In this document: one piece after another, positions 12,748-60,432 of the stretch | Numbering within the stretch: the first letter of the stretch is position 1 | How the letters are laid out: every line of letters starts with the position of its first letter | Source: Alphaproteobacteria bacterium | GTDB lineage: Bacteria; Pseudomonadota; Alphaproteobacteria; RF32; CAG-239 | DNA: 64,000 nucleotides | Assembly: GCA_045221335.1 (NCBI GenBank) | Contig: JBGUWS010000014.1 | Location: forward strand, 70,261 to 134,260 | Reading direction: 5' to 3' | The notes under the pieces: model-generated | Database searches by the model: none | What the model saw: only the letters and a program-made list of their open reading frames with translations | Told to the model about the DNA's origin: nothing | Made by a program: the position numbers and the translations under genes

Positions 12748-13260
12748 ATGGAACCAACACAAGCAATGGTTAATGAATATAAGCTAAAGCAATTTGCTAA
12801 GGCTATGTGCAAAGTTATTGATAGTAAATATAATCCCAAATACGCCTTAAAAATTAAGATAGACCACAATAACATCAATAAAGAGCTCAAACAAAAATGT
12901 ATGGCGCACCCATACAATGTATTAGGGTGGACGTTAACAACCTTTGAGAAGGCATTAGTTGGTAAAAAAAATTGGAAAACAAATCCTGTTCCCTTTTTAT
13001 GGATAAAAGTTGCAGAAAAAGATGGTAAATATCAACACGGATATGTGGTTATAGGGGGAACAAACTACATGTCAGATAAAATCCAAGGAGCAATAGACCG
13101 CGTCAGAGAGCAGTTACTTGGCACCATAGAAGTAAATATGATAAAAATTAACAGCATTGCTGATTTAGAGTTAGATGCCAGTACAATAACATACATCGAT
13201 GCCGAAGGTAACGCCAAGCTTCGTAATGTTATAAGCTCTAAAACTATCTTAGGAATTTAA
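12748..13260 (+). CDS. Hypothetical protein (170 aa), no recognisable motif
   Basis: ORF with an AGGGGCAGGG-type RBS region; nothing recognised. Confidence 0.4.
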   Translation: MEPTQAMVNEYKLKQFAKAMCKVIDSKYNPKYALKIKIDHNNINKELKQKCMAHPYNVLGWTLTTFEKALVGKKNWKTNPVPFLWIKVAEKDGKYQHGYVVIGGTNYMSDKIQGAIDRVREQLLGTIEVNMIKINSIADLELDASTITYIDAEGNAKLRNVISSKTILGI

Positions 13261-42400: not shown

Positions 42401-45400
42401 AATAGTAACCAATACGATAGATGGGGGTATAATTTATAACCAATCACAAATTAATTCTATTTCAGGAAAGATTATAAATAATTACATTGAATCTAAAAAT
42501 GCCACATTAAACGGGGGCGTATTATTTAATGATGCGTCTGGTAATATCTTAATGACATCGGATATAGAAAATAACTATGTCAAAGGGGCGGATATTACAA
42601 ACTCTGATGGTGGAATAATTTATAATAGTGGAACATTAACGCTTTCCGATGTTTCTCTTAAAGATAATGCAACAAATTTAGAAAACACAATTTCAAACAG
42701 TGGCAATCTTTCTATAATTGCGAATAATAAGGATGTCGTATTTGCCGGAAACAAAGTCGGTGCAACCATTACTAGAAACGAAACAACAGGAGAAGTTTCC
42801 GTTACGGGTGGAGATGCTTTAGATATAAGAAACAGTGGTAGCAGTGTGCTGAACTTATTTGCTAAAACAGGAAAATCGATAATTTTTGAAGGTGCAATTA
42901 CTGACGATGATAATCAAGCAACAGCAAATATTGGCGGAACATACGATGATAATGGAACAGAAAAAAATTATGAAGGTTCAGTAATATTTAAAAATACAGT
43001 CGCTCTCTCAACATTAAACATCAAAAATAATGCAAATATAATATTAGGAGTGAATGGCACACAATTTGGTTTATTGAATTTAGGAACTTTAACCAATGAT
43101 GCAAAAAATGGATCGATTAATAGTATAAATAATCATATTGAAAATCACCAAATAACGAAAGCCACATTAAATTCAGCCTTAAATATAGGAATAGATATGA
43201 GTGTGGCAACCGATCTAACAACAGAAGCGGATACATTTACTTTAGGTGCGGATAGCACGGGTACATTTAATATCGCAGATCTAAATATGCTCGGGGATGG
43301 TATAGCTGCTTTTAAGGCCTCCACAGAATCTAAAGAAATCATACAGAAAATATTAAATAATGCAAACAGCAACACCATATTAACTCTTTCTAATACGGTT
43401 AAATCCGCTTATGAAGAAGAAATAGCCGATGAACTTGTAGAAGACGTTGATGAAATTACTGGATCAACCGTTAAATATAATGAAAAGTATGGAGAATATG
43501 AACTTACACGTCAAAGAGCGTTGGAAGTATCAATTGTCGGTTCATCACAAGGATTGGCTGATGCAATCAGATGGGCAATAACAGTAACCGATAGTGATAA
43601 AATATATAAAGACGATACTTTGCATCTGATAAATATTGCATCAGGTACAAATAGGGTATTCGATTTTGATGGTACGACAAACACCTTTAATGTAACGGAA
43701 AATACAGGCACAACAGCTGTTGGTAAATTAACAATATTAGGTACGCAAAATGGTACTGCGTACTCAACAATAGATGCTGACGGGCACAGTTTGTTTGATA
43801 TAACGACCTCAGGGGCAGCCGTTGATATACAGAATACAAAAATTAAAAATGCAGAATACATAGCTGATGTCACAAGTGGTAATGTATTGACTTTAAGTAA
43901 CGTGATTATTGATAATACAAATACCAAAGGTATAACCGGAACAGGAACAACGGTCATATCAGGCGGTAAAACGGTATTAAGTGCAGAATCCAACCAAAAT
44001 TTATTGACAATTAATTCAAATGGTGAGCTAGAAAACAATGCAAAGTTCACATTAGCAGATAAAATTTCAAATTCAGGTACACTGACTTCAATTGCCGATA
44101 ATATAGTAACGGAAAATGGTATAGAAAATGAAGGAGTAATAAACTTTATCGGGGGAGAGAATTTAAATAATATCAGTGGTACAAACGGAACAGTTAATTT
44201 TTCTGATACATCAATAAATTCAGGAACAATAGAACAAAAAATAATCACTAATAGCAACAGTTTGACATCTGATGCCGGAACCTTGAAAGCATCAGCAGGC
44301 ATCCAAAATACAGGGAATTTATATCTGACAGGTGGTATAACACAGAGTATAATTTCAGGCGAAAATGGAACTATACATACCATGGGATCAGTAACAATTG
44401 GAAAAGCCATAAATAACAATGTGTTAAGTCTAGATAGTGGAAGTACAAAATTAGGTATAACAGATCTTTCAACAGCCCAAAAATTAGTCATAAACGGGGG
44501 AGATTTAAATCTACAGTATTTATCAAGTACAGAAGATTATAATTTAGGAAACGTTGAAATCTTGGAAGATATGGGACTGGGTATTGATGTCGATTTAACA
44601 GGAAACACCGCAATAAAGAAAGTTGATACAATATCTGCAACAACAGTTTCTGGCTCTAAAAAAATATATATCAATAACTTAAATATAACGGTTCCTAGTC
44701 CCGGAGATGAAGCCCCAACATATTCAAAAGTTGCAGATAATAATCTAAAAGACAGTGTAGATTTAGGCGATAATGCCAAAACACACGTTAACAATATATC
44801 ACAAAATGGTTTTATGATAACTTATGAAAAAGATACAGAAGGAGAAAATACGGGTGGTTTCTTACATCTGACCTACGCGGATCTGGTAACGGCAGCTCGT
44901 GCAACAACAAGATCAAGAATATATGTTATGGGCAGTGCTGATGAGGATGTTGTCAGCCAGTTAGACGAACAGGGTGGAACAGGAATAACAGATAATAATC
45001 ATTTGTTTGGAGGTGTATCTTTAAGTGTAAACGGTACAGGCATTCAATCAATAATTGGTAGTGGTACGACCGGTGGAATACAGTTAGCTGGAACACAAAC
45101 TTTAAGCTTAAATAACATTAAAGAATACACAGGGTTCTCAACGGGTATTACCAATTATGGTACGGTTAATGTCACAAATGTTGATTTTATTGGAAATACA
45201 ATAGATATAAATAATAATACAGTACTTAATTTGTATGGAACAGATGAGCTAAAAACAATAACAGGAGATACCGGTACAATTAATATTGCAAGTTATGTTG
45301 ATGGAGATAATCAAACCATTAATGCAGAAGTAACTTTTGCCACAGACGGAAATATTACTCAAAAAGATATAGTTATTGCAGAGAATAACGTCTTAGAAAA

Positions 45401-48400
45401 TAATGCTAATCTGACAATCTTAAATAAAATTTCCAATAATGGTACCATAACTTCAAAAGCAAATAACATAAGCACCACAAATGGTATTATAAATAATGGT
45501 ATACTCAATTTAACTGGCGGAGAGAACACAAATGCAATAACTGGTACAGATGGCGTTATTTACCTAACTAATACCGGAAGTAACAGTGCCTCAATTACCC
45601 AAAACAGTATAATTAATTCCGGAACATATACAAATAACGGTACAATCAATGGGTTATTTGATAATAGTAATGCAACGTTAGAAAATAATAGTGAAATTAG
45701 TTTAATAACCATGGATGGAGGTAACTTAAATAACGGCACAAACGGTACCATCCTGGCAACAGACTTAATCAGTGGTAATGTAATTAATGCCGGTTCTATA
45801 AACAACACCGGTCGCATGATAATAGAAAGCAGTGACACCTATACAAATACCGGCTATATTGCTAATTCCGGCGATTTAACAATTAAAGGAACAAAAGAAA
45901 TCGGACAGATTACAGGATTAGGGGACTCAACAACAGGAAATATTGTTTTGGGAGATACCTCGACAGATATTTCGACAGTTAACAAAGATATTGCTCAGCA
46001 AACAATAACCTTAAATAATGGAACGCTCAAATTTGCTGCCACAGGTTCTTTAACAGATAATGTTGCATTTATTGGTAACAACGGTACTTTGGATACTCAA
46101 AATAGCACAATAAATACAATATCTCTTGGTGCGGTCACATTAAATAGTAACATTATGTGGGCAATAGACGCTGATTTAGCAAATATGACAGCAGATAATG
46201 TAACCGGCAACGCAAATCCATCCGGTTCAGGAAAATTAGTAATTAATGCAATAAACCTTCTTTCGGACGGTAATTATAAATATATAGAAACCAAAGTTGC
46301 AGATAATAATCTAAAAGGTATTATTGCGTTAGCTTCAGATCAATTTATTGTTAATAATTTAGCTGGAAACGGAAGTTACCTTGTTACTTATCAAGCAAAA
46401 ACGGATGGTGGATATTTAACCTTTGATAATTCTGATATGAATAACCTTGTTATTGCTGCACGAAAAGAAGGTAGTGTTGTTTACAGTATGTCTCAAAATG
46501 AAAGTATCGAAACAGATTTAGCAGCTATTCCCGACGATATAACAAATGCTATAGGTAACCAAATAGCCGATGATTATACAATTAATGGCAATGGTCATAG
46601 CATTGATGGTGCCAACAAAGGTGGTATAATAACTTCTGCAACACAAGTTTTAACATTAAATAATATTAGTGAAGTTAAAGATTTTTCAGGGAATGCAATT
46701 ACGAATGCAGGTACACTAAATATCAATGCGCAAACAACAGATACAGTATTTAACAGCACAGCAGGCATCAAAAATACGGGAGATTTAATCTTAAATGCCG
46801 CAGAAGGCCAAAAAATAACAATTGCCGGAGCAATAACCGATGACACTGTTACTAAAGGGGTAACAACCGTCAAAGGAGATGGAATTACCAATATAAATAA
46901 TAGTATTACTCAAGATAAATTGCTCATTGAATCAGGCACCGTCAATGTTTCTGCCTCAAATTTGAATATAGATGAGTTCATACAAAATGACAGTATTCTA
47001 AATTTAGATGAAGGAATATTAAGTTCAATCATTAAGGGTAATAATGGAACAACAAATATTGTAGGAGAAGTTACTAATAACGCGTCAATCACTCAAAATG
47101 AAATAACTATTGAGGAGACTGCCAAACTGACGACCAATGCCAGTGATATAACCAGTGTAAGCGGTATAGATAACAACGGTACATTAGAGTGGATAGGTTC
47201 AGGAGAAAACAACAATATTATTTTAAGCAGCAATAATGAGGGTATAATAGAAGTTAAAGGCACTGTTCAAAATAATCAAAGCGTGACGCAAAATAAGATT
47301 ATAATAGCCGGTAACAATGCGGAACTAATTTCTAATGCTGATAATTTAAGTACGATTGAGGGAATTGAAAATAACAGTCTTTTAACTTTAACAGGCGGTC
47401 AGAATACCAATAAAATTGATGGTACAGGTAAGCTTGTTATTAAGACAGATAATCAAGTAGAAAATGAAGCGTTGATAAAACAAAAACAAATTACGGTAGA
47501 AGAAGGAACATTGATAAGTGATGTTGCCAATTTAGTAACAACAGAGAATATAAAAGTTTCCGACTTGTTGCGTTTAACCGGAACAGGTGATAATACAAAT
47601 CGAATTATAGGTAACGGTACGACAGAAATTGCGGGAACATTGACAACTTCAAACACAATCAGTTCTAACTTAGCCATTTCAGGAACATTAACAACTTCAG
47701 CTGATAAACTGGATATAGCATCAAAGAGCTTAAAAGGCGCCGGAGGAACATTAGACTTAAGCGTTAATGATAAATATGCAGAGGTGTTAACAGTAAAAGA
47801 GCTTGATCTAAACGAGGGTAATCTTAATTTGATAATAGATGTTGACCTTGCTAACAAGCAAGCTGATCAATTAAATGTAACAAGCATCTCCGGGTCAAAT
47901 AAATTAGTTATAAATGGCTTTAATCTTATAAGTGATGCACAAGAGAATTTACCAATTACAACAACAGTATTAACCGTAAATGACACATCAGAAGCCGAAA
48001 AACTAAGCCAGAATGTAGAGTTACAGGGTGCCCCGGTAACAATCCAAGGTGAAATTCCTGAATATAGCTACCTGGTTTCATATATTGTAAAAGATTTAAC
48101 AGGTAATTTACAATTTGAGTACGCAAATCTGGCAACAGCAATTATTTTTGATGCAGAGCAAAAAGTTTATACAATGGCCAACGAGGAAAGCTTAAGCGAA
48201 GAAAAAGAAATGCAAGGAAAGAATTTAAGCATTTGCGGTAACGGGAACGCCATTACGGGAGACGGAACAAATAACGGTATCAGAATTGGAAATGATCAAA
48301 CATTATCAATTAATGATGTCAACAGTATGCAAGAATTTGATCAAGCCATTGTAAATGATGGTGGTACAGTTAACCTTAAAAATGTAAGTTTCACAAATAA

Positions 48401-50438
48401 CACGGTAGATGTTAATAACAATAGCATATTAAATTTAGAAGGAAATAATGTACTACAAGACGGCATTATCGGAGATAATGGTAAAACAAACATTATTTCA
48501 GGCGAAACAACACTTTCAGGCGAAACAACGCAAGAAACAATTACCGTTTCTGATGCAACATTAAATAATCAAGGAATTATCAGTGCTGCTATCAATAACG
48601 CCGGTACAATTAATAATGAAAACGAACTTAAAATGAACGGCACATCAGTAAATACAGGTAAGATTAGTGGAAATGGCACTTTAACAGTCAATGGAACTCT
48701 AGAAAACACCGAAGATACAGCTTCTATTGTTCAAGATAAAGTACAGATTACGGAAAACGGCGAATTAACATCAGATAATGACAAAATCAGCGCATATATC
48801 GTTAATGACGGTATCTTCAATATGAGCGGTGCGGAAAATAATAATATCGTGGACGGAACAGGAATTGTTAATATTAACTCCAGTATGAGGCTTAATGAAC
48901 AAATAGGAGGAACAAACACGATAAACGTCAATGAAGGTGTATTAACCTTTGCTGATAATGAAGCTTTAGGGAGCAATGTTAAATTAAACGCCAACAAAGG
49001 TAGTTCTATAGACGTCGAAAATAATCAGATGAGCGTAGATCAGGTGGTATTTAAAGAAGGCTCAACCTTAAAATTAAAAGTAAATAGTCTTTCTGATTTT
49101 GGTTCGATTATAGCAAATACAATAAATGTCGAGCAAGGAGCTAATCTGTTTGCTGTTCTAGGGCAGGGATTGATTGAAGTCGGTCAGGAAGGAAGAATTC
49201 AGCTCTTAACAGCTAATAACAGTGATTTTAATAACTTTAGTGACAGTTTTGAAAATAACATGTACCGTTTTGAAAAAGACGGCAAAAATGGTGCATACAT
49301 CATTTCACAAGCCAGAACAGCAGAGGATGTCCTAAAAGAAGCAAATGCCAACAAGGATATTGTTGGTGCTGGACACGCTTGGATAGATGGTTCTCAGTTC
49401 CCGGATGAAAATAGTCAGGAAGTTGCAGATAAACTAACAGAATTAGCACAGACAGATGCCCATAAGCTTATAAAGGCATTAAAAGGTCTTGCACCTAACG
49501 ATGCCCCGATAGTAAAAACCTTAGCAATTGAACGGGCCTCTTATCTGTCAGATATGTTGCAAAATCATATTTATAACCGTTCAGAAGAACAATCCGCACA
49601 AGGTCTCTCATCTAATATTTCAGCACTGGATGCATCAGTTTGGATAAAGACATATGCCGCACGTTCTACCATAGCAGCAGACGATAATGCCGGAGGATTT
49701 AATATCAACCGCCAGGGAGCCGTATTAGGCATAGATAAGAAGGTAAATTCAGATACCTTAGTCGGTATGGGTTATGGTGCGGATACAACAAAAGCAAAAT
49801 CACATGATCACAATGATAAGGTACAAACCCATAGTTTGTTTGCTTATACGCGATATAAGCCAAATGATTGGTACATGGAAAGCTTAGCGGCATACAGCCA
49901 ATCTCAATATAATGAAACAAAGCAAAGTGTTTCAACCATCCGTGCAAAATATGATGTAAAAGACCTATTCTTTAAGGTAGATAACGGTTATGAGTTTAAT
50001 ATAAAAGATGCAATTATAACACCGGAATTGAGCTTAAGATATCATTATATAAAACGAGACGGATATAAAGATAGTGCAGGCCAAAAAGTTGATGCAAATA
50101 ATCTACAGGTCTTCACACCTGTGGTCGGTGTAAAAGCTTCTACAGAATTTGAGATAGATGAAAATAAACTCTCAAGGAAAGCAACCGTAAGGCCGGAAGT
50201 TTATGTTGGGGCAGGATATGATGTCAAATCAGATAATGAAAACTCCTTTGTAAGCTTGCCTAACGGAGAATCTTACGTTTATCATGGCAATCAATTAGAT
50301 AAGTTCTTTATAGAAACAAAAGCCGGTGTCAAAGCAAGTTTCACGGATGATGTTGACGTAGGTCTCTGGTATCTTGGAAATTACCGCGGAAATTACCAAT
50401 CTCACGCAGGAATGGTCGAGCTGAAAGTAAGATTTTAA
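39432..50438 (+). CDS. Giant type Va autotransporter (3668 aa) with Pmp/POMP repeats, reiterated ~38-aa and ~130-aa passenger modules, and C-terminal beta-barrel
   Basis: Signal peptide (LLLGVLANVSYTYA). Many FxxN/GGAI-type repeats and periodic (I/L)SG(D/N)I(S/T)NN...YGG(I/M)IYN units. Four copies of a ~130-aa DVDL... module. C-terminal ~300 aa paralogous to the first autotransporter's translocator, ending ...VELKVRF. Confidence 0.85.
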   Translation: MMKVKYKKVFKLTLLLGVLANVSYTYAAEQYVDDYNSLIAAISGAQDGDIIILNNSIEVTGALSSINKNITIDGQGLYGIYSSSLGGFTVSAGKNVTFKNIGQATVNLETGEVTYVEHSGLQGFHKSYTAALRNNGTLTLDNVVFYGNDGANGHGRAMYNSSSGTILSIKGKFLNNTNGSGTLANYGNIAYVKADFVGNSGGQHGGAILNNKGAKIQEIRDSNFIANSSARSGGAIRNLDGANEVTIYDSLFRFNNSRQGGAIKNSDESKAIIYNSLFDRNYAIYDSPDSPAASRPGGGAISNTDGKVYITDSQFTNNAAENNGGAILSDGLLYIYAKEKDVEFKNNKSLATISNAGANATVSGGVYNDLYLLKNAEINANAGKNIIFNGSVVNAVNTVVLSLNNDASIQGGNYIFNNEVTNGIFNIYNGAAVKFGTYNQVDGSVSYGKLNGVSFSNDTKGGTIDFQNNHIDDQVLTDLTLNSDIDIKLDVDLVNGISDYFSANTYTGNGKLNIVGINILSDNPIDLATKVSNSVLKDAITLSIATVDGPSLSYSILYDTSQNDGGYLRFSSGEMTNLVIVNRAEAKHRFYSLGSDENIAADIAEIGDGSTSIGEMGGVTGTIFTINGNSDYSINGENYAEITVKSGKTLNVDNVGSLEANGDVKAAWQGFKGTLFSVSSGTLNFTGDNVIANNTAIDKESLISNNGGTITVSDGSLNILNNSYHASLINNTNGTIGDFNTLIKSNLVNTGTGSLYGLIYNNAGSGKTAKIGELSGEISNNVITNSNGNLYGGIIYNYSKGTAEIDKITALFQGNQISTSALYGGLIRNQAEGGAVKIGDITGDIKENTLAFKNDTYGAIISNKATTKNAEIGNISGNITNNTINMSGNKSLYGIIQNEGNSGGTAKILGISGDISNNSINGNNNNSLLGGMIYNCAKSANAEIGEISGDIKNNSFKMGSMEGSIISNKNTSGYDAIIDAISGNIEENMIIVTNTIDGGIIYNQSQINSISGKIINNYIESKNATLNGGVLFNDASGNILMTSDIENNYVKGADITNSDGGIIYNSGTLTLSDVSLKDNATNLENTISNSGNLSIIANNKDVVFAGNKVGATITRNETTGEVSVTGGDALDIRNSGSSVLNLFAKTGKSIIFEGAITDDDNQATANIGGTYDDNGTEKNYEGSVIFKNTVALSTLNIKNNANIILGVNGTQFGLLNLGTLTNDAKNGSINSINNHIENHQITKATLNSALNIGIDMSVATDLTTEADTFTLGADSTGTFNIADLNMLGDGIAAFKASTESKEIIQKILNNANSNTILTLSNTVKSAYEEEIADELVEDVDEITGSTVKYNEKYGEYELTRQRALEVSIVGSSQGLADAIRWAITVTDSDKIYKDDTLHLINIASGTNRVFDFDGTTNTFNVTENTGTTAVGKLTILGTQNGTAYSTIDADGHSLFDITTSGAAVDIQNTKIKNAEYIADVTSGNVLTLSNVIIDNTNTKGITGTGTTVISGGKTVLSAESNQNLLTINSNGELENNAKFTLADKISNSGTLTSIADNIVTENGIENEGVINFIGGENLNNISGTNGTVNFSDTSINSGTIEQKIITNSNSLTSDAGTLKASAGIQNTGNLYLTGGITQSIISGENGTIHTMGSVTIGKAINNNVLSLDSGSTKLGITDLSTAQKLVINGGDLNLQYLSSTEDYNLGNVEILEDMGLGIDVDLTGNTAIKKVDTISATTVSGSKKIYINNLNITVPSPGDEAPTYSKVADNNLKDSVDLGDNAKTHVNNISQNGFMITYEKDTEGENTGGFLHLTYADLVTAARATTRSRIYVMGSADEDVVSQLDEQGGTGITDNNHLFGGVSLSVNGTGIQSIIGSGTTGGIQLAGTQTLSLNNIKEYTGFSTGITNYGTVNVTNVDFIGNTIDINNNTVLNLYGTDELKTITGDTGTINIASYVDGDNQTINAEVTFATDGNITQKDIVIAENNVLENNANLTILNKISNNGTITSKANNISTTNGIINNGILNLTGGENTNAITGTDGVIYLTNTGSNSASITQNSIINSGTYTNNGTINGLFDNSNATLENNSEISLITMDGGNLNNGTNGTILATDLISGNVINAGSINNTGRMIIESSDTYTNTGYIANSGDLTIKGTKEIGQITGLGDSTTGNIVLGDTSTDISTVNKDIAQQTITLNNGTLKFAATGSLTDNVAFIGNNGTLDTQNSTINTISLGAVTLNSNIMWAIDADLANMTADNVTGNANPSGSGKLVINAINLLSDGNYKYIETKVADNNLKGIIALASDQFIVNNLAGNGSYLVTYQAKTDGGYLTFDNSDMNNLVIAARKEGSVVYSMSQNESIETDLAAIPDDITNAIGNQIADDYTINGNGHSIDGANKGGIITSATQVLTLNNISEVKDFSGNAITNAGTLNINAQTTDTVFNSTAGIKNTGDLILNAAEGQKITIAGAITDDTVTKGVTTVKGDGITNINNSITQDKLLIESGTVNVSASNLNIDEFIQNDSILNLDEGILSSIIKGNNGTTNIVGEVTNNASITQNEITIEETAKLTTNASDITSVSGIDNNGTLEWIGSGENNNIILSSNNEGIIEVKGTVQNNQSVTQNKIIIAGNNAELISNADNLSTIEGIENNSLLTLTGGQNTNKIDGTGKLVIKTDNQVENEALIKQKQITVEEGTLISDVANLVTTENIKVSDLLRLTGTGDNTNRIIGNGTTEIAGTLTTSNTISSNLAISGTLTTSADKLDIASKSLKGAGGTLDLSVNDKYAEVLTVKELDLNEGNLNLIIDVDLANKQADQLNVTSISGSNKLVINGFNLISDAQENLPITTTVLTVNDTSEAEKLSQNVELQGAPVTIQGEIPEYSYLVSYIVKDLTGNLQFEYANLATAIIFDAEQKVYTMANEESLSEEKEMQGKNLSICGNGNAITGDGTNNGIRIGNDQTLSINDVNSMQEFDQAIVNDGGTVNLKNVSFTNNTVDVNNNSILNLEGNNVLQDGIIGDNGKTNIISGETTLSGETTQETITVSDATLNNQGIISAAINNAGTINNENELKMNGTSVNTGKISGNGTLTVNGTLENTEDTASIVQDKVQITENGELTSDNDKISAYIVNDGIFNMSGAENNNIVDGTGIVNINSSMRLNEQIGGTNTINVNEGVLTFADNEALGSNVKLNANKGSSIDVENNQMSVDQVVFKEGSTLKLKVNSLSDFGSIIANTINVEQGANLFAVLGQGLIEVGQEGRIQLLTANNSDFNNFSDSFENNMYRFEKDGKNGAYIISQARTAEDVLKEANANKDIVGAGHAWIDGSQFPDENSQEVADKLTELAQTDAHKLIKALKGLAPNDAPIVKTLAIERASYLSDMLQNHIYNRSEEQSAQGLSSNISALDASVWIKTYAARSTIAADDNAGGFNINRQGAVLGIDKKVNSDTLVGMGYGADTTKAKSHDHNDKVQTHSLFAYTRYKPNDWYMESLAAYSQSQYNETKQSVSTIRAKYDVKDLFFKVDNGYEFNIKDAIITPELSLRYHYIKRDGYKDSAGQKVDANNLQVFTPVVGVKASTEFEIDENKLSRKATVRPEVYVGAGYDVKSDNENSFVSLPNGESYVYHGNQLDKFFIETKAGVKASFTDDVDVGLWYLGNYRGNYQSHAGMVELKVRF

Positions 50439-50440
50439 AA
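50390..50440 (+). repeat. Direct repeat copy A (3' end of the autotransporter CDS); partner at 51213-51263
   Basis: 51 bp with 3 mismatches versus copy B. Both copies encode NYQSHAGMVELKVRF* (differences synonymous). Confidence 0.8.
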
Positions 50441-50589
50441 TAAATTATTTCGATCATTAAAATAAAAGATAACGATTTTTTATGTTTTTGAGTGTTACGC
50501 ATCTCATCTTGATATTTTAATTGACTAATTAGCGAAAAGATGCCACCATTTCAGAAAAGTGTGTATCGGCAAATAGAACGGAGGCAAAT

Positions 50590-51213
50590 ATGGCAATCGG
50601 TAAAGCACTTAAAAACTTATGGAATTATTTATTTAGTTCTGATGACGAAAATCAGGTCACGCCAGCAGATCCGCAAGAAGATAAAGCCGCAACGAAAAAG
50701 ATATATACATATAAAGATATAGAATTTATTCATGATAACTATAGCGGTATGACTTATGCAAATATGGATTTTAACAATGGCTACCATATGTATATTTCGG
50801 TTGAAGATTACAGTGATGACTTAGAAAACCATGAATCACCAGCCGGATATGAAATAACAATCTTTGATAGCAAAGGCAGAAGGAACAGTACTTGTTTAAA
50901 TAAAGACGGAAAAGATCTTGTTGCATATAACAAAAGTGCCGTGACAACATTGATGAAACAAATTCAACAATTGGATGAAAAAGGGCATATATCCGCAACG
51001 CATGATGCAACGAGGATTCAGGCCAGAAAACAATATTTATTGAAAAAGCAAAAGGATAGAAAAGCATACAAAAAGAGCCATCCGGAAGATGATGTTTCCG
51101 GCGTTATACTTGCTGATGAAATTGCGAAAAGTATTATTTCGGGGAGCGAAAAAAGAAAGATTACTCCTGCAGTTGCCCGTGAATATAAAGCGAAATTGTC
51201 GCGTCATCAATAA
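50590..51213 (+). CDS. Hypothetical protein (207 aa) with acidic N-terminal half and Lys-rich C-terminal half, inserted between duplicated autotransporter 3' ends
   Basis: Strong GGAGG RBS 6 nt upstream. No recognisable domain. Confidence 0.5.
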   Translation: MAIGKALKNLWNYLFSSDDENQVTPADPQEDKAATKKIYTYKDIEFIHDNYSGMTYANMDFNNGYHMYISVEDYSDDLENHESPAGYEITIFDSKGRRNSTCLNKDGKDLVAYNKSAVTTLMKQIQQLDEKGHISATHDATRIQARKQYLLKKQKDRKAYKKSHPEDDVSGVILADEIAKSIISGSEKRKITPAVAREYKAKLSRHQ

Positions 51214-51263
51214 AATTACCAATCTCATGCTGGAATGGTCGAGCTGAAAGTAAGATTTTAAAA
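51213..51263 (+). repeat. Direct repeat copy B (orphan autotransporter 3' end remnant)
   Basis: See copy A. It begins exactly at the stop codon of the 207-aa ORF. Confidence 0.8.
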
Positions 51264-51295
51264 CAAAAAAACCTGTTAAGTATCCAGAAGTATCC

Positions 51296-51464
51296 GCAAT
51301 TCTCGAGCTGAAATTTTTGGATTTTTTGAGCCGGTTAACTTCAGATTGTTATGAATCCGAAGTTGATTTTATGAGATTTTTTGTAAAGCTGGAGTGTGCT
51401 TGCAATACACGAGCCAATCATTTGATTATGGAGATATTTTAAGGTTACGGGGTGGATTTCAGAT
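51296..51464. repeat. Two tandem degenerate copies (R1a, R1b) of an ~85-bp intergenic repeat family
   Basis: Shared core ggagtgNgcttgca....cgag.taaaatttt....tttttaac..atgggtg....gaacca.a.gt.gat..aaat..cagc; related copies at 53023-53100 and 53723-53807. R1b overlaps the last codons of the GT-C gene. Confidence 0.55.
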
Positions 51465-52905
51465 ATGAGAATTTCCCGATTTTTTGATAATCTTTCAGTG
51501 TGTCCATGCTTATAAAATGTTTCTTAAATATCTCTTGTTGGTCGGCATCAAAGGCATCATTTAATGTTTGGTATTCACGCGATGACCAATCGGGGAAATA
51601 ATAAACAAAGTTCATTGGATATTGTTTATTCAACAAGTTTACATCATAATTTGGAATAGGGTGGAAATAAATGTCGTGTACCGCCTCGGTCGGAATATGG
51701 CTCCAATAATATGAAGGGCGTTCGGAAAATATGCCGGAGACAATCGTAATGCCGTATTTTTCTTGATCCAATAACTTCATAATCTTGGATTTATTTAAGG
51801 GTTTAGATAGTGATGATAATCCGATTAGGGTGAAAGATAAGGTGATATAAATAGAAGCGATGAATAGGATTTCTTTTTTATAGATCAGCGGTGCAGCAAC
51901 CATTGCGGCATAAATAATCAGCATCAGATAATGCTGTCCGTAACGACAAATGGAAAAGCATCGGATACCTTCACCGATACATAAAAAGACTAAAATCCAC
52001 CAATAACGATTATGTTTTTTGTTTTTAATATACCAGCAAATAGCGGCTAAAGCCATACCTAAAACCAGCAGAAAATCAAAGAAACAATAATTATATATTT
52101 GACTCCATAACTTAGCAAAAATAGTGTTTAATTGCCAGTTAAGTTCATAGTATTTTTCAAGACAATCTGCTTGCCACAGGGCGTAAATACCGATGCAAAG
52201 TATAAACAACGGAATGATGGCTGCTTTCAGCATATCTTTTATTTTTTGTGGATGACGATAGAGGAAATAACCAATAACCAAAACTATCAGCGCGCCCTGA
52301 AAAACGGTTGTCTGCAAGAATAAAAAGGCAAGGGTAAGCATGATGGCTGCAATTTGCAGATGTTTGAATTTTTTATATCGAAAATAACAGAATAAATAAT
52401 ATAAACCGCAGAAAAAACAACAATGTTGCCAGATATCCGGCCTGATTTGGAATAGACCGCGAACCGTAATATCACTAGCTACCCAAAAATAAAGATTAAG
52501 GCATATCAATGCGCAAATTTTTCCGCCGATGAATTTTTTTTCTATCTTGTAAATATAATAACCGGTTAAAAGCGAAACGCCAAAACAGATTATTCTGCCG
52601 ATATAAACGGCAAGCACAGTGTTATGCGGAATTATTGTTATCATCGGGGCTAAAATATACCATAATAAAGGGTGATGATGCTCGAAAAAATCACGATACG
52701 GCATGTCGCCGAGAGTAATAAAATAGGCGGCGCGCAAATGTTCGATATCATCAAAAATAAATAATTTTGAGGTAAATATTTTGGCTATGGTATAAATAAG
52801 GTTAAGACCCAGCAAAATCAGCAGGATAATGATATCATTGTTTGAATCGGTGCTATTGTCTGTTTTACCAGGTGACAATAGTCGGCGGTTTTTTGTTTCG
52901 GTCAT
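51445..52905 (-). CDS. GT-C fold membrane glycosyltransferase (ArnT/PMT_2-like)
   Basis: About 11 TM helices. First periplasmic loop DDIEHLRAAYF...GDMPYRDFFEHHHPLLWY resembles the ArnT/PMT DE..Y ... YFEKPPLLYW region. Confidence 0.5.
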   Translation of the reverse strand: MTETKNRRLLSPGKTDNSTDSNNDIIILLILLGLNLIYTIAKIFTSKLFIFDDIEHLRAAYFITLGDMPYRDFFEHHHPLLWYILAPMITIIPHNTVLAVYIGRIICFGVSLLTGYYIYKIEKKFIGGKICALICLNLYFWVASDITVRGLFQIRPDIWQHCCFFCGLYYLFCYFRYKKFKHLQIAAIMLTLAFLFLQTTVFQGALIVLVIGYFLYRHPQKIKDMLKAAIIPLFILCIGIYALWQADCLEKYYELNWQLNTIFAKLWSQIYNYCFFDFLLVLGMALAAICWYIKNKKHNRYWWILVFLCIGEGIRCFSICRYGQHYLMLIIYAAMVAAPLIYKKEILFIASIYITLSFTLIGLSSLSKPLNKSKIMKLLDQEKYGITIVSGIFSERPSYYWSHIPTEAVHDIYFHPIPNYDVNLLNKQYPMNFVYYFPDWSSREYQTLNDAFDADQQEIFKKHFISMDTLKDYQKIGKFSYLKSTP

Positions 52906-53022
52906 ACGTGGCCCTCGGTTAATGGTATAATCTTCTTTATTCTAAATAGAATGTGTTTAATAAAATGTAAAATCATTACTGAAAAACATATTAAATAGAC
53001 ATTATAACTGACATAAAAGAGC

Positions 53023-53100
53023 GCTTTGCGAGATAAAATTTGATTGTTTTTAACTTATGGGTGTTATGAACCAAAAGTTGATTATTTAAAATAATCAGCT
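53023..53100. repeat. Copy R2 of the ~85-bp repeat family
   Basis: gcgagataaaatttgattgtttttaacttatgggtgttatgaaccaaaagttgattatttaaaataatcagc. Confidence 0.55.
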
Positions 53101-53176
53101 AAAAAATAAATTTTAGAAACAAAAATTTAAGGATTTTTATCCTAAACTTTTAAAAAAGTTTAATTGTAGGTGTCAC

Positions 53177-53674
53177 ATGATGAAAGAATATAAAATTGCT
53201 ATTAATAAATATATTAAAAGTAAAGGAGAATATTTTATACGAAAGTATTTTGTTTTGCTGGTTTTAGGTATGTTTACGGCAGTGCCTGCAAAGGCGCAAA
53301 TGGCAGATGCATTAGGGACTCTTGCAATTGGTGGCGCGATGGGGGTAAATGATGCAAAAATGATTGCCAAAGGGCAGGGCAGCTTAAACGACTTGCGTTT
53401 TCAAGATGATTTGGTCCGTTTGATTACAGATGTTCAGATGAATTTAAGTGGGCAGAACATGCCGATTGATAAATCGATGATTTCTTTTAACGGCTTTCAA
53501 GGAATTGACTGGAATATCTCAAGCCAAGGTCATGAAACCGTGCTTGAATTTAATCATTTAAATGCGCGATTGTGCCTAGTCTGCAAAAATAATGAAGCTT
53601 CTGTCAATCGTGTGGAAATAAACGGCGGTGGAACATGCGAGGCAGAGGGTAATACTGTTAAAATGTATTTTTAA
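53177..53674 (+). CDS. Small secreted protein of unknown function (165 aa), flanked by repeat copies R2 and R3
   Basis: N-terminal hydrophobic segment with a VPAKA-Q cleavage-like site; AGGTG RBS. Confidence 0.45.
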   Translation: MMKEYKIAINKYIKSKGEYFIRKYFVLLVLGMFTAVPAKAQMADALGTLAIGGAMGVNDAKMIAKGQGSLNDLRFQDDLVRLITDVQMNLSGQNMPIDKSMISFNGFQGIDWNISSQGHETVLEFNHLNARLCLVCKNNEASVNRVEINGGGTCEAEGNTVKMYF

Positions 53675-53722
53675 AAAATATAACAAAAAAACGCCATTTC
53701 TGACGATTTTTGAACTGTGGTC

Positions 53723-53807
53723 GGAGTGAGCTTGCAGTTCTCGAGATAAAATTTTGCATGTTTTTAACTTATGGGTGTTAAGAACCAGAGGTGGAATTAA
53801 AATCAGC
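53723..53807. repeat. Copy R3 of the ~85-bp repeat family
   Basis: ggagtgagcttgcagttctcgagataaaattttgcatgtttttaacttatgggtgttaagaaccagaggtggaattaaaatcagc. Confidence 0.55.
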
Positions 53808-53872
53808 AAAAGCTTGCGGTTTATGATAAAAAATCCTAAATATTAGATATAAATGATTAAAGAGAACTTGTT

Positions 53873-54571
53873 ATGACATTAAATAAATTAGATATTCTTT
53901 CTAAAATGGCATATTTTGCAAAATGCAAAAAAACAGCTATAGTACGTATATTAGAATTTCTCATACCACTAAATGACGAACAATCTGTATTGATGAATAT
54001 TTTTTATAATGCCTATTTTACTTACTGGTTAGGGTTAGTAGATTATTTGATAAAAGATGTTTCTTTTATTAAGCAAGAAGATATAGAAAATATAGTAGGT
54101 TCTAAAGATAATTATTATTACCTTAGAAATCTAAGAAATGCGGTTATTCATAGGGCTGAGGACTTAGCTGATAAAGGAACTGTTATTAATAATACAGATA
54201 TTATAACCCCATTTTCTCCTATAGATGTTATGGATCCATTTGGAAAGAAAAAATACCAACCATTTTATAACAATTTAATACAAATCATATTAAAATGTGA
54301 AGAGATAAATGAAATATGCATAAAATTGATAAAACAATATAATTTGACAGATTATCCTGATCTTACTAAAGAAGAATTTATGGATAGGTGTAATCGTGAT
54401 CCTTATATTTCATCGTATGTAAAAACGGATGAAATATCCGAAAAATCTTGGCAACATTATTATAGCATTAAAAATGATATGAAAAAAGAAAATGTAAAAA
54501 AGATTTTATCTTATTTTGAAACTCTTAATTTATTTCAAGATGCGATAATAAAAGATAATAAGATAGATTAA
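53873..54571 (+). CDS. Hypothetical protein with Rx4H (HEPN-like) motif, candidate Abi-type RNase
   Basis: 232 aa, predicted all-helical, ~26% GC. Motif YYYLRNLRNAVIHRAED fits HEPN Rx4-6H. A paralogous motif occurs in the 248-aa protein at 60432. No other recognisable domain. Confidence 0.4.
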   Translation: MTLNKLDILSKMAYFAKCKKTAIVRILEFLIPLNDEQSVLMNIFYNAYFTYWLGLVDYLIKDVSFIKQEDIENIVGSKDNYYYLRNLRNAVIHRAEDLADKGTVINNTDIITPFSPIDVMDPFGKKKYQPFYNNLIQIILKCEEINEICIKLIKQYNLTDYPDLTKEEFMDRCNRDPYISSYVKTDEISEKSWQHYYSIKNDMKKENVKKILSYFETLNLFQDAIIKDNKID

Positions 54572-54806
54572 ATATTAGCAATAATTTTGGAGTGACTAAA
54601 ATCAAAGGCTAATTTAACTTTTATTTTTCGATAATAGAAGTTTTTCTTCCCTGTATAAGCGATTTTGGTTTTGACATAGGTTTGATTATAAAAGATAGAT
54701 TCGGTTATTATAGGGTAATTTTTGATAAGTTAATAATCGTATGAATTTATTATTTCTAAACTATTGGTGTTTTATTATATCGTAGTTTAATGGAGTGATT
54801 TATCTT

Positions 54807-55919
54807 ATGAAACCAGATATACAAAAAATATTTAGCCAATATGGAATAACCAATAAAATGCATAACGATGCATATGATTGGCAGAAAAAATATTGGGAAA
54901 TTAGTAATGAGATAAGTGGTAAGAATGAATGGGAGGACATTTGTATTGGATTTTTCGCTTATATTACACTATGGACGTTAATATTGTTTGGTTTAGCATT
55001 TCTTGATGATAAATCAAATATTTCTCAAGACTTGCTTGCTTTCCTTATTATTGTAGTTTTATTAAATATATTTTTCTACTTAATGGGAAAGCAAGAAAAT
55101 AAGAAAAAAGAAGAATATAAACATAAAATAGAAAGCCATAAATTAGAAAAAGTTCACCATTCTGAATATGAATACAAAGAACAGAAACTAGCAAGCGATT
55201 ATGAAACTGAATTAAAAAATCTTCAAAGTAAAATATTTAGAAAAAGAGTTAGTGAAACATTTAAGGATAATTTACAAAAATATAATGATTTCATAGATAC
55301 CTGTAGTTATATAAACCATTATCTTGTATTTGCTCACATAAATACTTATGAACATAGAGAATACGCTAAAAAACGAGGTTATTCTCTTGTTACAAATAAT
55401 TATTCTTCTTTAAGTAAAAAAATACTTCCTAAAATTGAAGAAGATTATTCTTCATCTAAGCCTATAGAAAGCAAAAGTATTAAAAGTAAATTTAATCCTC
55501 AAAAAATAGATTGGCTTGAACTTAATAAATCTAATGCCAAATTAGGAGAATATGGGGAAAGCATAATTATAGATTTGGAAAAGGAATATCTGATAGAAAA
55601 CGGATTAAAAGATTTATCTGAAAAAATAGAATGGGTATCACAGACCAAAGGGGACGGAGCAGGATATGATATTTTATCATATGATACAGGCGGAAATTGT
55701 AAATATATAGAAGTTAAAACTACATGTGTGTCGGAAAACGAACCTTTTTATGTAAGTGATAATGAATTGAATTTTATTAAAACACATTTGGATAATTATT
55801 TTATATATCGTTTGTATATCGATAAAAATTCCAATACAGTAAAATTGAGAGTATTTAATTCAAGCGAATTTTTAAACTTTGCTCTTCGTCCTGTATCGTA
55901 TAAAGTTATTTTAAATTAA
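54807..55919 (+). CDS. Membrane-anchored protein with C-terminal DUF3883-like PD-(D/E)xK nuclease domain
   Basis: Two N-terminal TM helices, a K/E-rich coiled-coil linker, and a C-terminal ~130 aa with LGEYGESI, GYDILSYD, IEVKTT and SDNELNFIK. These match, as I recall it, the DUF3883 restriction-endonuclease-like consensus (D...E-V-K). Start moved to ATG 54807 (GGAG RBS). Confidence 0.55.
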   Translation: MKPDIQKIFSQYGITNKMHNDAYDWQKKYWEISNEISGKNEWEDICIGFFAYITLWTLILFGLAFLDDKSNISQDLLAFLIIVVLLNIFFYLMGKQENKKKEEYKHKIESHKLEKVHHSEYEYKEQKLASDYETELKNLQSKIFRKRVSETFKDNLQKYNDFIDTCSYINHYLVFAHINTYEHREYAKKRGYSLVTNNYSSLSKKILPKIEEDYSSSKPIESKSIKSKFNPQKIDWLELNKSNAKLGEYGESIIIDLEKEYLIENGLKDLSEKIEWVSQTKGDGAGYDILSYDTGGNCKYIEVKTTCVSENEPFYVSDNELNFIKTHLDNYFIYRLYIDKNSNTVKLRVFNSSEFLNFALRPVSYKVILN

Positions 55920-56183
55920 CAAATAAAATTTTAGTGCTGTAATCTATAACTCCTTGATTTTCTTATCTTCTCATCCTAAAAAGTTCGAAGATTATTTGGG
56001 GTATGGCTTATTTTATATCAAACATTCGAACTCGCCGAAAGCTATTCCGCATCCGGAAAAGATTTCCAAAGTAACGCATAAACCACTAGAGGTGCCCTTT
56101 GTATATCCCTTAGTATTTGCGCGACTAAATTTGAGATAAGCTTATCTAACACTAGTGTTATTATTGTGTCGGCTCCATACTTT

Positions 56184-56203
56184 AAGGCTTAGAGCCTTTT
56201 TTA
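56184..56203 (+). terminator. Short hairpin + T-run (aaggct-tag-agcctttttt) upstream of fic
   Basis: 6-bp stem followed by T6. It shares the 19-nt string agagccttttttatgaaaa with the terminator after fic. Confidence 0.4.
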
Positions 56204-56295
56204 TGAAAAAAATGTCAATATTCGGGAAATTTTACTTGCTTTTTCGGGAATTATTCGGTAATATTTCGGTAAAGAATAGAGAAAAGGAACATAAA

Positions 56296-57354
56296 ATGCC
56301 CAATATGACAGATATTATAATTACCCCGGATATGCTAAAGAAAATAGCAGAAATAGATGCTTTTAACGGAGCATTCAATAGCGGCGGTATAAAGATTAAG
56401 CCGGAGCAATTAAAAGCCATGAAACGCATTGCTACGATTGAATCTATCGGCTCTTCTAATCGTATTGAGGGCAATAAGCTAAACGATACAGAGGTGGAAG
56501 AAGTCTTTAACCGTATCAGCAAAAAATCTTTTCAAACGCGCGATGAGCAAGAAGTTGCCGGTTATGCCGATTTGCTTTCAACGATTTTTGAAAATTACAA
56601 AGAAATAAATTTATCGGAAAACTACATTCGGCAGTTGCATAAAATTTTGCTTTCATATTCTGACAAAGACGAGCATCATCGCGGCGAATATAAAAAAGAT
56701 TCAAATCGCGTGGCAGCCTTTGATGCCAACGGTAAAGAAATCGGCACGATTTTTGAAACAGCCACGCCGTTTGATACACCGCGTTTAATGCAAGAGCTTG
56801 TTAATTGGACGAACATCAATTTTAACGATGGCTACTTCCACCCGATTATCACTATCGGCGTGTTTGTGGTGCATTTTTTATCAATACACCCTTTTACCGA
56901 CGGAAACGGTAGAATGTCACGTGCATTAACGACCTTGCTTATGCTACAACATGGCTATAATTATATGCCTTATTCATCATTGGAATCAATTATTGAAGCC
57001 AGTAAAGATGCGTATTACAGAGCTCTGCGCGCTACGCAAAAGACAATCTGGAGCGATAAGGTAAATTATGAGCCGTGGCTGACATTTTTTATTACCTCAC
57101 TTGCTAAGCAAAAACGGCATTTAGAAGATAAAATTGCCTTTGCCACTAAAACCGATAATACCAGAATTACCAAAGGCGAGCAAGCCGTTTTAGACCTTTT
57201 TGAAGATAAGACAAATTGGTCGGTGGCAGAAATGGCGGAAACTTTAAGTAAAAACAGTGAGACCGTCAAAAAGACCGTGCAAAATTTAGTAAAGAAAAAT
57301 ATGCTTGAAAAACAAGGCTCCACCAAGGGCACATACTACATTTTGAAGGGGTAA
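56296..57354 (+). CDS. Fic/DOC family protein, class II (N-terminal inhibitory SxxxEG helix) with C-terminal winged-helix domain
   Basis: Canonical Fic motif HPFTDGNGRMSRAL. Upstream inhibitory-helix motif SSNRIEGN, i.e. (S/T)xxxE(G/N). C-terminal ~90 aa wHTH-like. Start chosen at MPNMTD (AAGGAA RBS) rather than the ORF-track 56155. Confidence 0.8.
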   Translation: MPNMTDIIITPDMLKKIAEIDAFNGAFNSGGIKIKPEQLKAMKRIATIESIGSSNRIEGNKLNDTEVEEVFNRISKKSFQTRDEQEVAGYADLLSTIFENYKEINLSENYIRQLHKILLSYSDKDEHHRGEYKKDSNRVAAFDANGKEIGTIFETATPFDTPRLMQELVNWTNINFNDGYFHPIITIGVFVVHFLSIHPFTDGNGRMSRALTTLLMLQHGYNYMPYSSLESIIEASKDAYYRALRATQKTIWSDKVNYEPWLTFFITSLAKQKRHLEDKIAFATKTDNTRITKGEQAVLDLFEDKTNWSVAEMAETLSKNSETVKKTVQNLVKKNMLEKQGSTKGTYYILKG

Positions 57355-57377
57355 AACCTATCGATTCTTTTTTTTCT

Positions 57378-57410
57378 GGCTCTATGTCTTATTGCATAGA
57401 GCCTTTTTTA
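57378..57410 (+). terminator. Rho-independent terminator after fic (ggctctatg-tcttattg-catagagcc + T6)
   Basis: Perfect 9-bp stem and a T-run. Confidence 0.75.
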
Positions 57411-57500
57411 TGAAAATTGGTAAATAAGCTCAATTATCACTTGCTTTTCAGAGTGTTTAGGGTAAAATCGCCATTATATTGTAACTTTTGGGACTTTTAG

Positions 57501-59987: not shown

Positions 59988-60432
59988 TCTGCATACGGTG
60001 TTGCGCTTGCCTACCGGTATTTTTTATGCGCAGGGTGTTAAGGCTAATGTTATTTTCTTTGATAAATATCCGCCACTTGATAAAGGACACCGCACAAATG
60101 ATGTGTGGTTCTATGACTTACGCACCAATATTAATTTAAGCTTGGTTACAAACTCTTTGAATGACAGCCATTTAGCAGACTTTATTAAGTGCTATAATGC
60201 AGATAATATTATGGCGAGGACAGAGAGCGAACGCTTTAAGAAGTTTACTTATGACGAAATTATCAAACGCGATAAGGTAAGCCTTGATATTACTTGGCTC
60301 AAAGACGAGAGTTTAGAGAGTCTTGAAAATCTGCCGGAACCGGAAATTTTGGCAGATGAAATCGTTGATAATCTGGAAACAGCACTGGATTCATTCAAAA
60401 ACGTGCTGACAGAGTTACAGAAAGCAGAGTAA
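59938..60432 (+). pseudogene. hsdM: Remnant of type I methyltransferase gene: C-terminal ~150 codons only, N-terminal catalytic domain deleted
   Basis: The translation from ~59980 (NLHTVLRLPTGIFYAQGVKANVIFFDK...VWFYDLRTN...SLDITWLKD...LPEPEILADE) closely matches the C-terminal region of EcoKI-type HsdM as I recall it. No SAM-binding or NPPY/F region is present upstream. Confidence 0.7.

Follow-up and report, generated by a model that had tools for sequence, protein, structure and literature searches.

The repeated end of the autotransporter gene

The stretch of DNA analysed here, called the window throughout, comprises 64,000 nucleotides (nt) of contig JBGUWS010000014.1 (positions 70,261 to 134,260; assembly GCA_045221335.1) from an alphaproteobacterium, and the feature under study is the 3' end of a giant autotransporter gene, which occurs in it twice. 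The gene itself is intact, occupies positions 39432-50438 (plus strand, as are all features below unless stated otherwise) and encodes 3668 amino acids (aa), the last of which are VELKVRF. Its product contains the Pfam Autotransporter beta-domain PF03797 at aa 3403-3645 (E 9.3e-39), begins with what by eye resembles a signal peptide (MMKVKYKKVFKLTLLLGVLANVSYTYA/AEQ) and terminates in an aromatic residue, Phe (KVRF). Judged by its sequence, the protein is a type Va autotransporter, as a C-terminal 12-strand beta-barrel translocator domain, an N-terminal Sec signal peptide and a terminal aromatic residue are all found in it. Beyond the stop codon follow a spacer, an open reading frame (ORF) of 207 codons (ORF207, 50590-51213), the second copy of the gene end, and DNA of mosaic character that extends to the flank of a tRNA-Gln gene.

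A repeat scan of the window revealed a direct repeat of 51 nt, in which the end of the autotransporter gene (copy A, 50390-50440) recurs at 51213-51263 (copy B) with two mismatches. In 100 dinucleotide shuffles the number of matches expected by chance was 0, and the pair (repeat family D2) is the most similar direct repeat in the window. The recurrence reported in the first-pass annotation, which had been made from the sequence alone, was thus borne out. The copies share an exact core of 32 nt (50409-50440 = 51232-51263), and their translations are alike, namely NYQSHAGMVELKVRF followed by a stop. They are separated by 772 nt (50441-51212), and not by the 764 bp given earlier, and the offset from copy to copy is 823. 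Both mismatches are synonymous changes at third positions, His CAC/CAT at 50405/51228 and Ala GCA/GCT at 50408/51231. A third difference, T at 50441 and C at 51264, is located 3 nt past the stop codon and falls within the repeat only when this is taken to 55 nt. The previous statement that three mismatches were all synonymous holds therefore for two of them, while the third is not a synonymous change at all.

With this extension, copy A (50390-50444) consists of the functional last 15 codons of the gene, its stop codon and 6 nt beyond, and it is the working end of the type Va autotransporter gene. Copy B (51213-51267) is a non-coding relic of an autotransporter 3' end. None of the ORFs listed for the window spans it, and its first base is the last base of the ORF207 TAA stop codon, with which it remains in frame (SRHQ, stop, NYQSHAGMVELKVRF, stop). 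Homology between the copies sets in sharply at the ORF207 stop, which makes the left edge of copy B an abrupt junction, and it ends 2-6 nt past the autotransporter stop. The sequence to the right of this junction was also met in an independent assembly, as the Logan contig L025 (SRR25030094) reproduces positions 51234-54448 at 99.97% identity. The contig stops precisely 30 nt inside the 32-nt core, which is where a k=31 graph breaks off when the branch is genuine. The match confirms the right-hand context of copy B, but it does not phase the two copies on one molecule.

The synonymous mismatches had been taken as a sign that copy B derives from a coding end that was once under selection. On one hand, only 21% of single substitutions in the 16 codons of the repeat are synonymous, and the chance that two random hits in these codons are both silent is P = 0.043. 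On the other hand, there are only two substitutions to consider, and an outgroup, the metagenome-assembled genome (MAG) L009, has CAT as in copy B and GCA as in copy A, which places one change on each copy. A silent change in copy A is uninformative because selection on copy A forces silence. The two differences fit two alleles that diverged under selection, and so point weakly to such a history without proving it.

We also considered which gene could have supplied copy B. The second autotransporter gene of the window (13404-18824, ending in RRDYRNHTGMIGLRYDF and a stop) was rejected as the source, since over the last 60 residues it is only 40% identical at the aa level; copy B should therefore come from the own lineage of the 3668-aa gene. 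A degenerate DNA pattern for MVELKVRF and the stop retrieved a single related MAG, L009 (Alphaproteobacteria RGIG5112 from roe-deer rumen, GC 36%), whose contig starts inside the gene. The last 72 residues of its autotransporter are 76% identical to those in the window, and unrelated DNA follows, therefore the region downstream of this gene family is variable. Among metagenome contigs and viral contigs there was no such gene end. Alleles of the autotransporter gene that lack the insert, which had been proposed as something to look for, did not appear in a peptide-pattern scan of genomes. A word-indexed protein search for such alleles gave no match either, and it also missed the 3668-aa protein itself. 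A 170-aa ORF located upstream of the second autotransporter gene (12748-13257) is 88% identical to L009 7274-7789, which places the organism of the window close to the RGIG5112 lineage, and the synteny around the autotransporter genes is not conserved between the two.

Two familiar kinds of repeat were rejected. An integron gene cassette was discarded as the inverted-repeat scan detected no arms of at least 12 nt within the repeat, and no tyrosine recombinase occurs among the window ORFs scanned; the only pairing seen by eye is the 5-bp AATCT/AGATT. Target-site duplications made by transposases are identical and about 2-15 bp long. The repeat described here is 51-55 nt long with 2-3 mismatches, it has no terminal inverted repeats, and no transposase is encoded nearby. 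The remark in the first-pass annotation that this is not a simple target-site duplication was therefore correct.

ORF207 as a member of a conserved family

The 207 codons of ORF207, its GGAGG ribosome-binding site and its stop codon overlapping the first base of copy B had been described correctly before. According to alignments with its homologues, ORF207 (50590-51213) belongs, at full length, to a small family of conserved hypothetical proteins. A set of 5.8 billion clustered proteins contained 10 relatives at 45-67% identity, in addition to its own entry at 100%, and ORF207 aligns with all of them over the full length, through the last residue. In the DNA, the homology shared by the family begins at a conserved promoter (about 50514) and ends exactly with the stop codon. 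The promoter/leader region with the ribosome-binding site (50514-50589) was delimited by alignment and blastn; its positions 50514-50543 are 90% identical to 2685-2714 of contig L001 (blastn), and GGAGG stands 8 nt ahead of the ATG. The promoter reads TTGACT-17 nt-CACCAT in the window and TTGACA-17 nt-TATATT in the relatives. The -35 element of the family is thus kept in the window (TTGACT), and the -10 element is not. ORF207 may be weakly expressed, or it may rely on read-through from the autotransporter gene. Spacer I (50445-50513), located between copy A and the start of the family homology, shows weak similarity to the corresponding upstream region in L001 (p about 0.05).

The protein had no match in Pfam, PHROG or NCBIfam and no transposase domain, and none of its relatives was found in viral contigs. 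Its AlphaFold2 model is poor (predicted local distance difference test score, pLDDT, 54.7). A profile search found the C-terminal ~70 residues (aa ~140-207, SGV.VAD.IA..IISGSEKR.ITP.VA.EY) again at the C-terminal end of other proteins, including ankyrin-repeat proteins (P0125, P0128 and P0133), and this part may be a shared targeting or secretion module.

As for the genomic surroundings of the family, no repeats flank the homologues present in about ten other contigs. Most of them occupy a stable chromosomal context, transcribed divergently from an SBF transporter gene and followed by genes for a 2-hydroxyacid dehydrogenase (2-Hacid_dh), a radical SAM protein, an SDR protein and a tRNA synthetase. 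The homologue in L001 (ORF209) is about 78-81% identical to ORF207 in DNA, and strong homology to F, the native 3' flank of the tRNA-Gln gene of the window, starts there 62 nt past the ORF209 stop. In L006, tRNA-Gln starts 135 nt past the stop of ORF210, and in L003 a tRNA-Gln relic is found 5 kb from the ORF207 homologue.

Because of its own conserved promoter, its repeat-free homologues and their stable contexts, ORF207 behaves like a resident gene of the lineage and not like a cassette. The insertion of ORF207 as a cassette, suggested in the first-pass annotation, is not supported by these observations, by the conservation of the family or by the position of the compositionally foreign DNA, which begins beyond copy B. 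Probably the direction has to be reversed: ORF207 would be resident, and the foreign DNA would lie outside the bracket formed by the two copies.

A further observation concerns L001, in which the region upstream of the ORF207 homologue (positions 2-1492) holds a gene end resembling that of a trimeric autotransporter (AIYRMGLTYAW and a stop), followed by an OmpH-like gene. There is thus an adhesin gene upstream of the ORF207 family in a second genome, though it is not homologous to the autotransporter of the window.

Origin of the second gene end

The explanation that we favor, with a probability of about one half, holds copy B to be what remains, at an illegitimate junction, of a second autotransporter end, allelic or closely (and very recently) paralogous, with one-sided homologous recombination or deletion of a second gene as its likeliest cause. 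The support for copy B being left over from a second gene end, where recombination joined two sequences, is better than that for any particular mechanism. Recombination between two autotransporter 3' ends, which had been suggested as the alternative to cassette insertion, fits the data best, but not with the 40%-identical paralogue of the window as the source.

In this scenario, two blocks of different history would meet at position 51213. The first would comprise the autotransporter gene, spacer I and ORF207; the second would comprise the last 51 nt of an autotransporter gene, the short spacer J' and a mosaic island of ~10 kb, which is made of decayed serine-recombinase elements that target tRNA-Gln and which ends at the native tRNA-Gln flank. 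The likeliest event would be one-sided homologous recombination (homology-facilitated illegitimate recombination, or 3'-end displacement), by which an alternative arrangement downstream of the same autotransporter gene came in. Its homologous anchor might have been inside the autotransporter gene, or in the region of flank F and tRNA-Gln, and the other end would have been joined illegitimately at the ORF207 stop with at most AAAT-type microhomology. As a result, the first gene end would not have been replaced, and the second would have come to stand next to it. The outcome would be no different if a complete second autotransporter gene once stood after ORF207 and was deleted except for its last 51 nt. 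Which allele was the donor, in which direction the event went and by which pathway the DNA recombined are inferences. As to the joint itself (51212/51213), the sequence after the ORF207 stop would share at most AAAT with GGAAATTACC, if the L001 sequence TAAAATG is taken to stand in for the ancestor. Products of homology-facilitated illegitimate recombination have a homologous flank on one side and, on the other, a joint with 0-10 nt of microhomology, and sequence is added or displaced in them and not cleanly exchanged.

Several points weigh against this explanation. No genome with either parental arrangement was found in scans of genomes, proteins and metagenome or viral contigs. Unless ORF207 was kept intact by selection, a junction located exactly at its stop is a coincidence of about 1 in 60 among neutral positions. 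In the microhomology argument, the sequence of L001 takes the place of the ancestor, and the direct linkage of ORF207 with tRNA-Gln is found in L001 only, its orientation being different in L006. Finally, a direct repeat that exactly preserves the end of a target gene is also the classical signature of site-specific integration.

Gene ends displaced in a comparable way are known. Homology-facilitated illegitimate recombination is a mechanism invoked for displaced 3' ends that are retained in Rhs, contact-dependent inhibition (CDI) and type VI secretion system (T6SS) effector loci (Kirchberger et al. 2017, PMC5361080; Jackson et al. 2009 cited therein). As in these loci, the incoming segment would be anchored by homology in or next to a long gene for a secreted protein, the old 3' end would have been displaced downstream and retained there, not expressed but with a stretch of identity to the active gene, and a small gene is present between the active end and the relic. 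Unlike in these loci, the relic corresponds here to the conserved last 15 codons, which encode the closing strand of the beta-barrel, and not to a variable toxin tip; it is single, with no array and no immunity-gene logic, and its peptide is the same as that of the active end. Moreover, in contrast to orphan modules of these systems, ORF207 stands upstream of the relic and has no immunity-like annotation. Autotransporter ends are not known to serve as diversification modules.

A second parallel is the icd/icdC duplication, found in E. coli on either side of prophage e14 or phage 21 (Hill et al. 1989, described in PMC13626634). There, too, the 3' end of a gene is present twice, once functional and once displaced, with mostly synonymous differences and with DNA bracketed between the copies, and recombination between the copies restores a hybrid gene. 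Unlike e14, which is 15 kb long and has its own integrase and a defined attachment (att) site, the unit described here consists of 772 nt with one conserved gene of chromosomal type and no recombinase.

The rival that deserves most attention is site-specific integration, in which the repeat would be the attL and attR of a small element (spacer I and ORF207). The element would integrate at the 3' end of the autotransporter gene and bring along a synonymous substitute for that end, in the manner of e14 or phage 21 in icd with its icdC fragment, or as an integrase-less remnant mobilized in trans, similar to a cis-mobilizable element (CIME). Direct repeats indeed bracket one discrete gene with its own promoter, a gene-end repeat is present at both boundaries and ends 2-6 nt past the stop of the target so that the gene is left intact, relics of integrative elements are abundant nearby, and icd/icdC offers an example with synonymous differences (PMC13626634). 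However, no gene for an integrase or other recombinase is present within 39-64 kb, and the recombinases linked to the relics, described below, are large serine recombinases that target here tRNA-Gln and not the autotransporter gene. Large serine recombinases leave crossover repeats of only ~2 bp. In addition, the ORF207 homologues in about ten other contigs are free of repeats and stand in syntenic chromosomal contexts, a putative attP would have to abut the ORF207 stop with zero spacer, and viral contigs gave no matches. We therefore regard this explanation as unlikely.

Another possibility, and an improbable one in our opinion, is a local templated duplication. The order autotransporter gene, spacer I and ORF207 would then be ancestral, and a patch of 51-55 nt from the gene end would have been copied into a break after ORF207, by template switching or repair synthesis, and diverged afterwards. 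In agreement with such an event, the source and the patch are on the same strand at a distance of just 823 nt, the patch is short and sharply bounded, and the outgroup assigns one change to each copy. Still, the start of the island at exactly that point would need a separate explanation, the patch would have had to survive as neutral DNA while reaching about 5% divergence, and its right edge coincides with the end of the gene, which is not expected for a random patch. Templated patches of this kind are rarely documented in bacteria.

With a slim chance of being true, the repeat might instead be the attachment site of an integrase-less mini-cassette (promoter and ORF207, an 823-bp circle) that is mobilized in trans and targets autotransporter ends at the segment encoding the beta-signal, supplying each time a synonymous replacement end. 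If this was the case, it would be a gene-end-targeting system not described for genes of outer-membrane proteins, possibly linked to the neighboring cassette-like modules of serine recombinases and tRNA-Gln, with their R2 repeats.

The last and least probable rival, to which we attach very little weight, is an assembly artefact in which strain variants with the orders autotransporter-spacer I-ORF207 and autotransporter-J'-island were stitched into one metagenome contig: the window apparently comes from a MAG, its relatives are MAGs, and the independent k=31 assembly branches exactly at the core, as two strains would also cause, but a de Bruijn path from the ORF207 stop to copy B needs junction-spanning k-mers in the reads, with no more than 4 nt shared with the real gene, strain bubbles yield one path or the other and not both in tandem, and the copies differ at 3 positions.

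On the reading that we favor, the locus is a clean and datable scar, which records that the DNA following a giant adhesin-type gene was re-joined by non-site-specific recombination beside a tRNA-Gln hotspot, in an uncultured alphaproteobacterium of the gut or rumen. As a gene end that was displaced or duplicated, it belongs to a known and ordinary kind of recombination scar and matters little by itself. It does call for caution, as a synonymous duplication of a gene end resembles an att site or a cassette, and yet the bracketed gene can be the resident one. RecA acting on the 32-nt identical core could delete the 823-bp unit and leave an intact hybrid autotransporter end. The core thus predicts a simple deletion polymorphism, the loss of ORF207.

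The mosaic island and the tRNA-Gln flank

The island extends from about 51264 to 61235, between ORF207 and the native flank of tRNA-Gln, and copy B is its left-most element. Within 53.6-60.4 kb its GC content varies from 24% to 44%, against 35.6% for the whole window. Its genes encode a protein with a NOV_C domain, a Fic protein, HsdR and a truncated HsdM, the last two being fragments of a type I restriction-modification system. The 164-aa ORF at 59938-60432 overlaps with the last part of hsdR and covers no more of the N6_Mtase profile than positions 199-295; this truncated type I methylase is evidence of decay of the island. A domain scan of all ORFs of at least 150 aa within 38.4-62.4 kb detected no recombinase domain.

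Directly to the right of copy B lies a unique spacer, J' (51268-51292; sequence context TAAAAC AAAAAAACC). J' is not a decayed tRNA flank, as it shows no significant similarity to the tRNA-Gln flanks. It is followed by the first of three window copies of a module of ~85 nt, R2(a), at 51290-51379 (nhmmer E 1.7e-16); the other copies are found at 53017-53098 and 53727-53807, and one more in L003 (15631-15717). The module (with CGAGATAAAATTT and, further on, TTTTTAACTTATGGGTGTTAAGAACCAGAGGT) was detected with nhmmer E values from 1e-16 to 1e-21, has a conserved core resembling a hairpin and has no Rfam match. Two of the window copies stand just upstream of small genes (ORF165 and ORF232), and in two cases R2 directly follows a tRNA-Gln relic. 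R2 may be the end of an element or a promoter/leader module. A third, degenerate copy of the autotransporter gene end suspected at 51304 (TCGAGCTGAAA) was dismissed, its local-alignment p being about 0.05, and it is better explained as a part of R2.

At 51388-51411, designated site b, a relic of the tRNA-Gln 3' end, AGCTGGAG, is fused to an element arm, TGTGCTTGCAATACACG, and this junction has matches in other contigs. The 24-nt motif was initially a candidate for a small RNA or tRNA gene, which was rejected as there was no Rfam match and no ARAGORN call; it was resolved instead as a tRNA-Gln relic with an element arm. It also occurs in the DNA that follows the ORF207 homologue of L001 (3612-3635), and five more contexts, none with ORF207, came up in a metagenome scan. 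Intact genes in L006 and in the window (61425-61499) show that the tRNA-Gln(TTG) 3' end, in reverse complement, reads TGGCTGGAG. In the junction TGGCTGGAG/TGAGCTTGCA (continuing as ATACACGGACTAG or GTTCTCGAG), the tRNA-Gln relic is joined to the arm of an integrative element, always 5-10 nt past the tRNA terminator. This junction borders large-serine-recombinase elements in L001, L010, L018, L020 and L021, where a gene for a 530-aa large serine recombinase and cargo are located to its right in three contexts (L001/L010/L020, L018 and L021); no recombinase is visible in the short contigs L016, L017 and L019. In the window there are two such relics, at 51388 and 53715.

The second of them is part of a complete att-type junction (53683-53807), in which a foreign-type tRNA-Gln flank with the terminator AAAAAAACGCCATTTCTGACGATTTTTGAACTG is followed by the tRNA relic TGGTCGGAG and by R2(d). 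The whole junction is arranged as in L003, and as far as GAGCTTGCA it is also present in L016, L018 and L021. Its flank (53683-53724) is 90-97% identical to the flanks in L006, L016, L018 and L021 (94% to that of L021) and unlike the own tRNA-Gln flank of the window (61390-61424). Such similarity suggests that a piece of the tRNA-Gln locus of another organism was imported with the island.

The native tRNA-Gln(TTG) gene (61425-61499) with its own 3' flank F (61258-61424) is located on the minus strand (61258-61499 together), and F has remained directly next to the intact tRNA. By eye, the identity of F to L001 3445-3611 is about 90%; in a full local alignment, which includes a weak left part, it is 75%. 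Tandem accretion of elements at tRNA hotspots is another known situation that the neighborhood resembles, with tRNA-Gln relics on element arms, defence cargo and GC mosaicism beside tRNA-Gln. The likeness concerns the neighborhood, however, and not the 51-nt repeat. In further contrast to such hotspots, native F is still in place next to the intact tRNA, and the relics stand off the canonical position, in part imported with a foreign flank.

Minor features of the region complete the picture. F contains a long hairpin (GGTCCGTGTAA and TTACACGGAC) and a terminator, and it is better conserved than the adjacent ORF207 genes; it may be a constrained element, such as a small RNA or a recombinase-binding region. 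A gene for a GT39-like glycosyltransferase (51445-52905, minus strand) is convergent with ORF207 and, in Alphaproteobacteria MAGs, typical of the lineage; the contexts of its homologues, with no autotransporter gene, ORF207 or tRNA-Gln nearby, are uninformative. A further repeat of the island that encloses a gene consists of two terminator-like hairpins of 52 nt (56158-56209 and 57365-57416), 75% identical and each followed by TTTTTTATGAAAA, which bracket the Fic gene.

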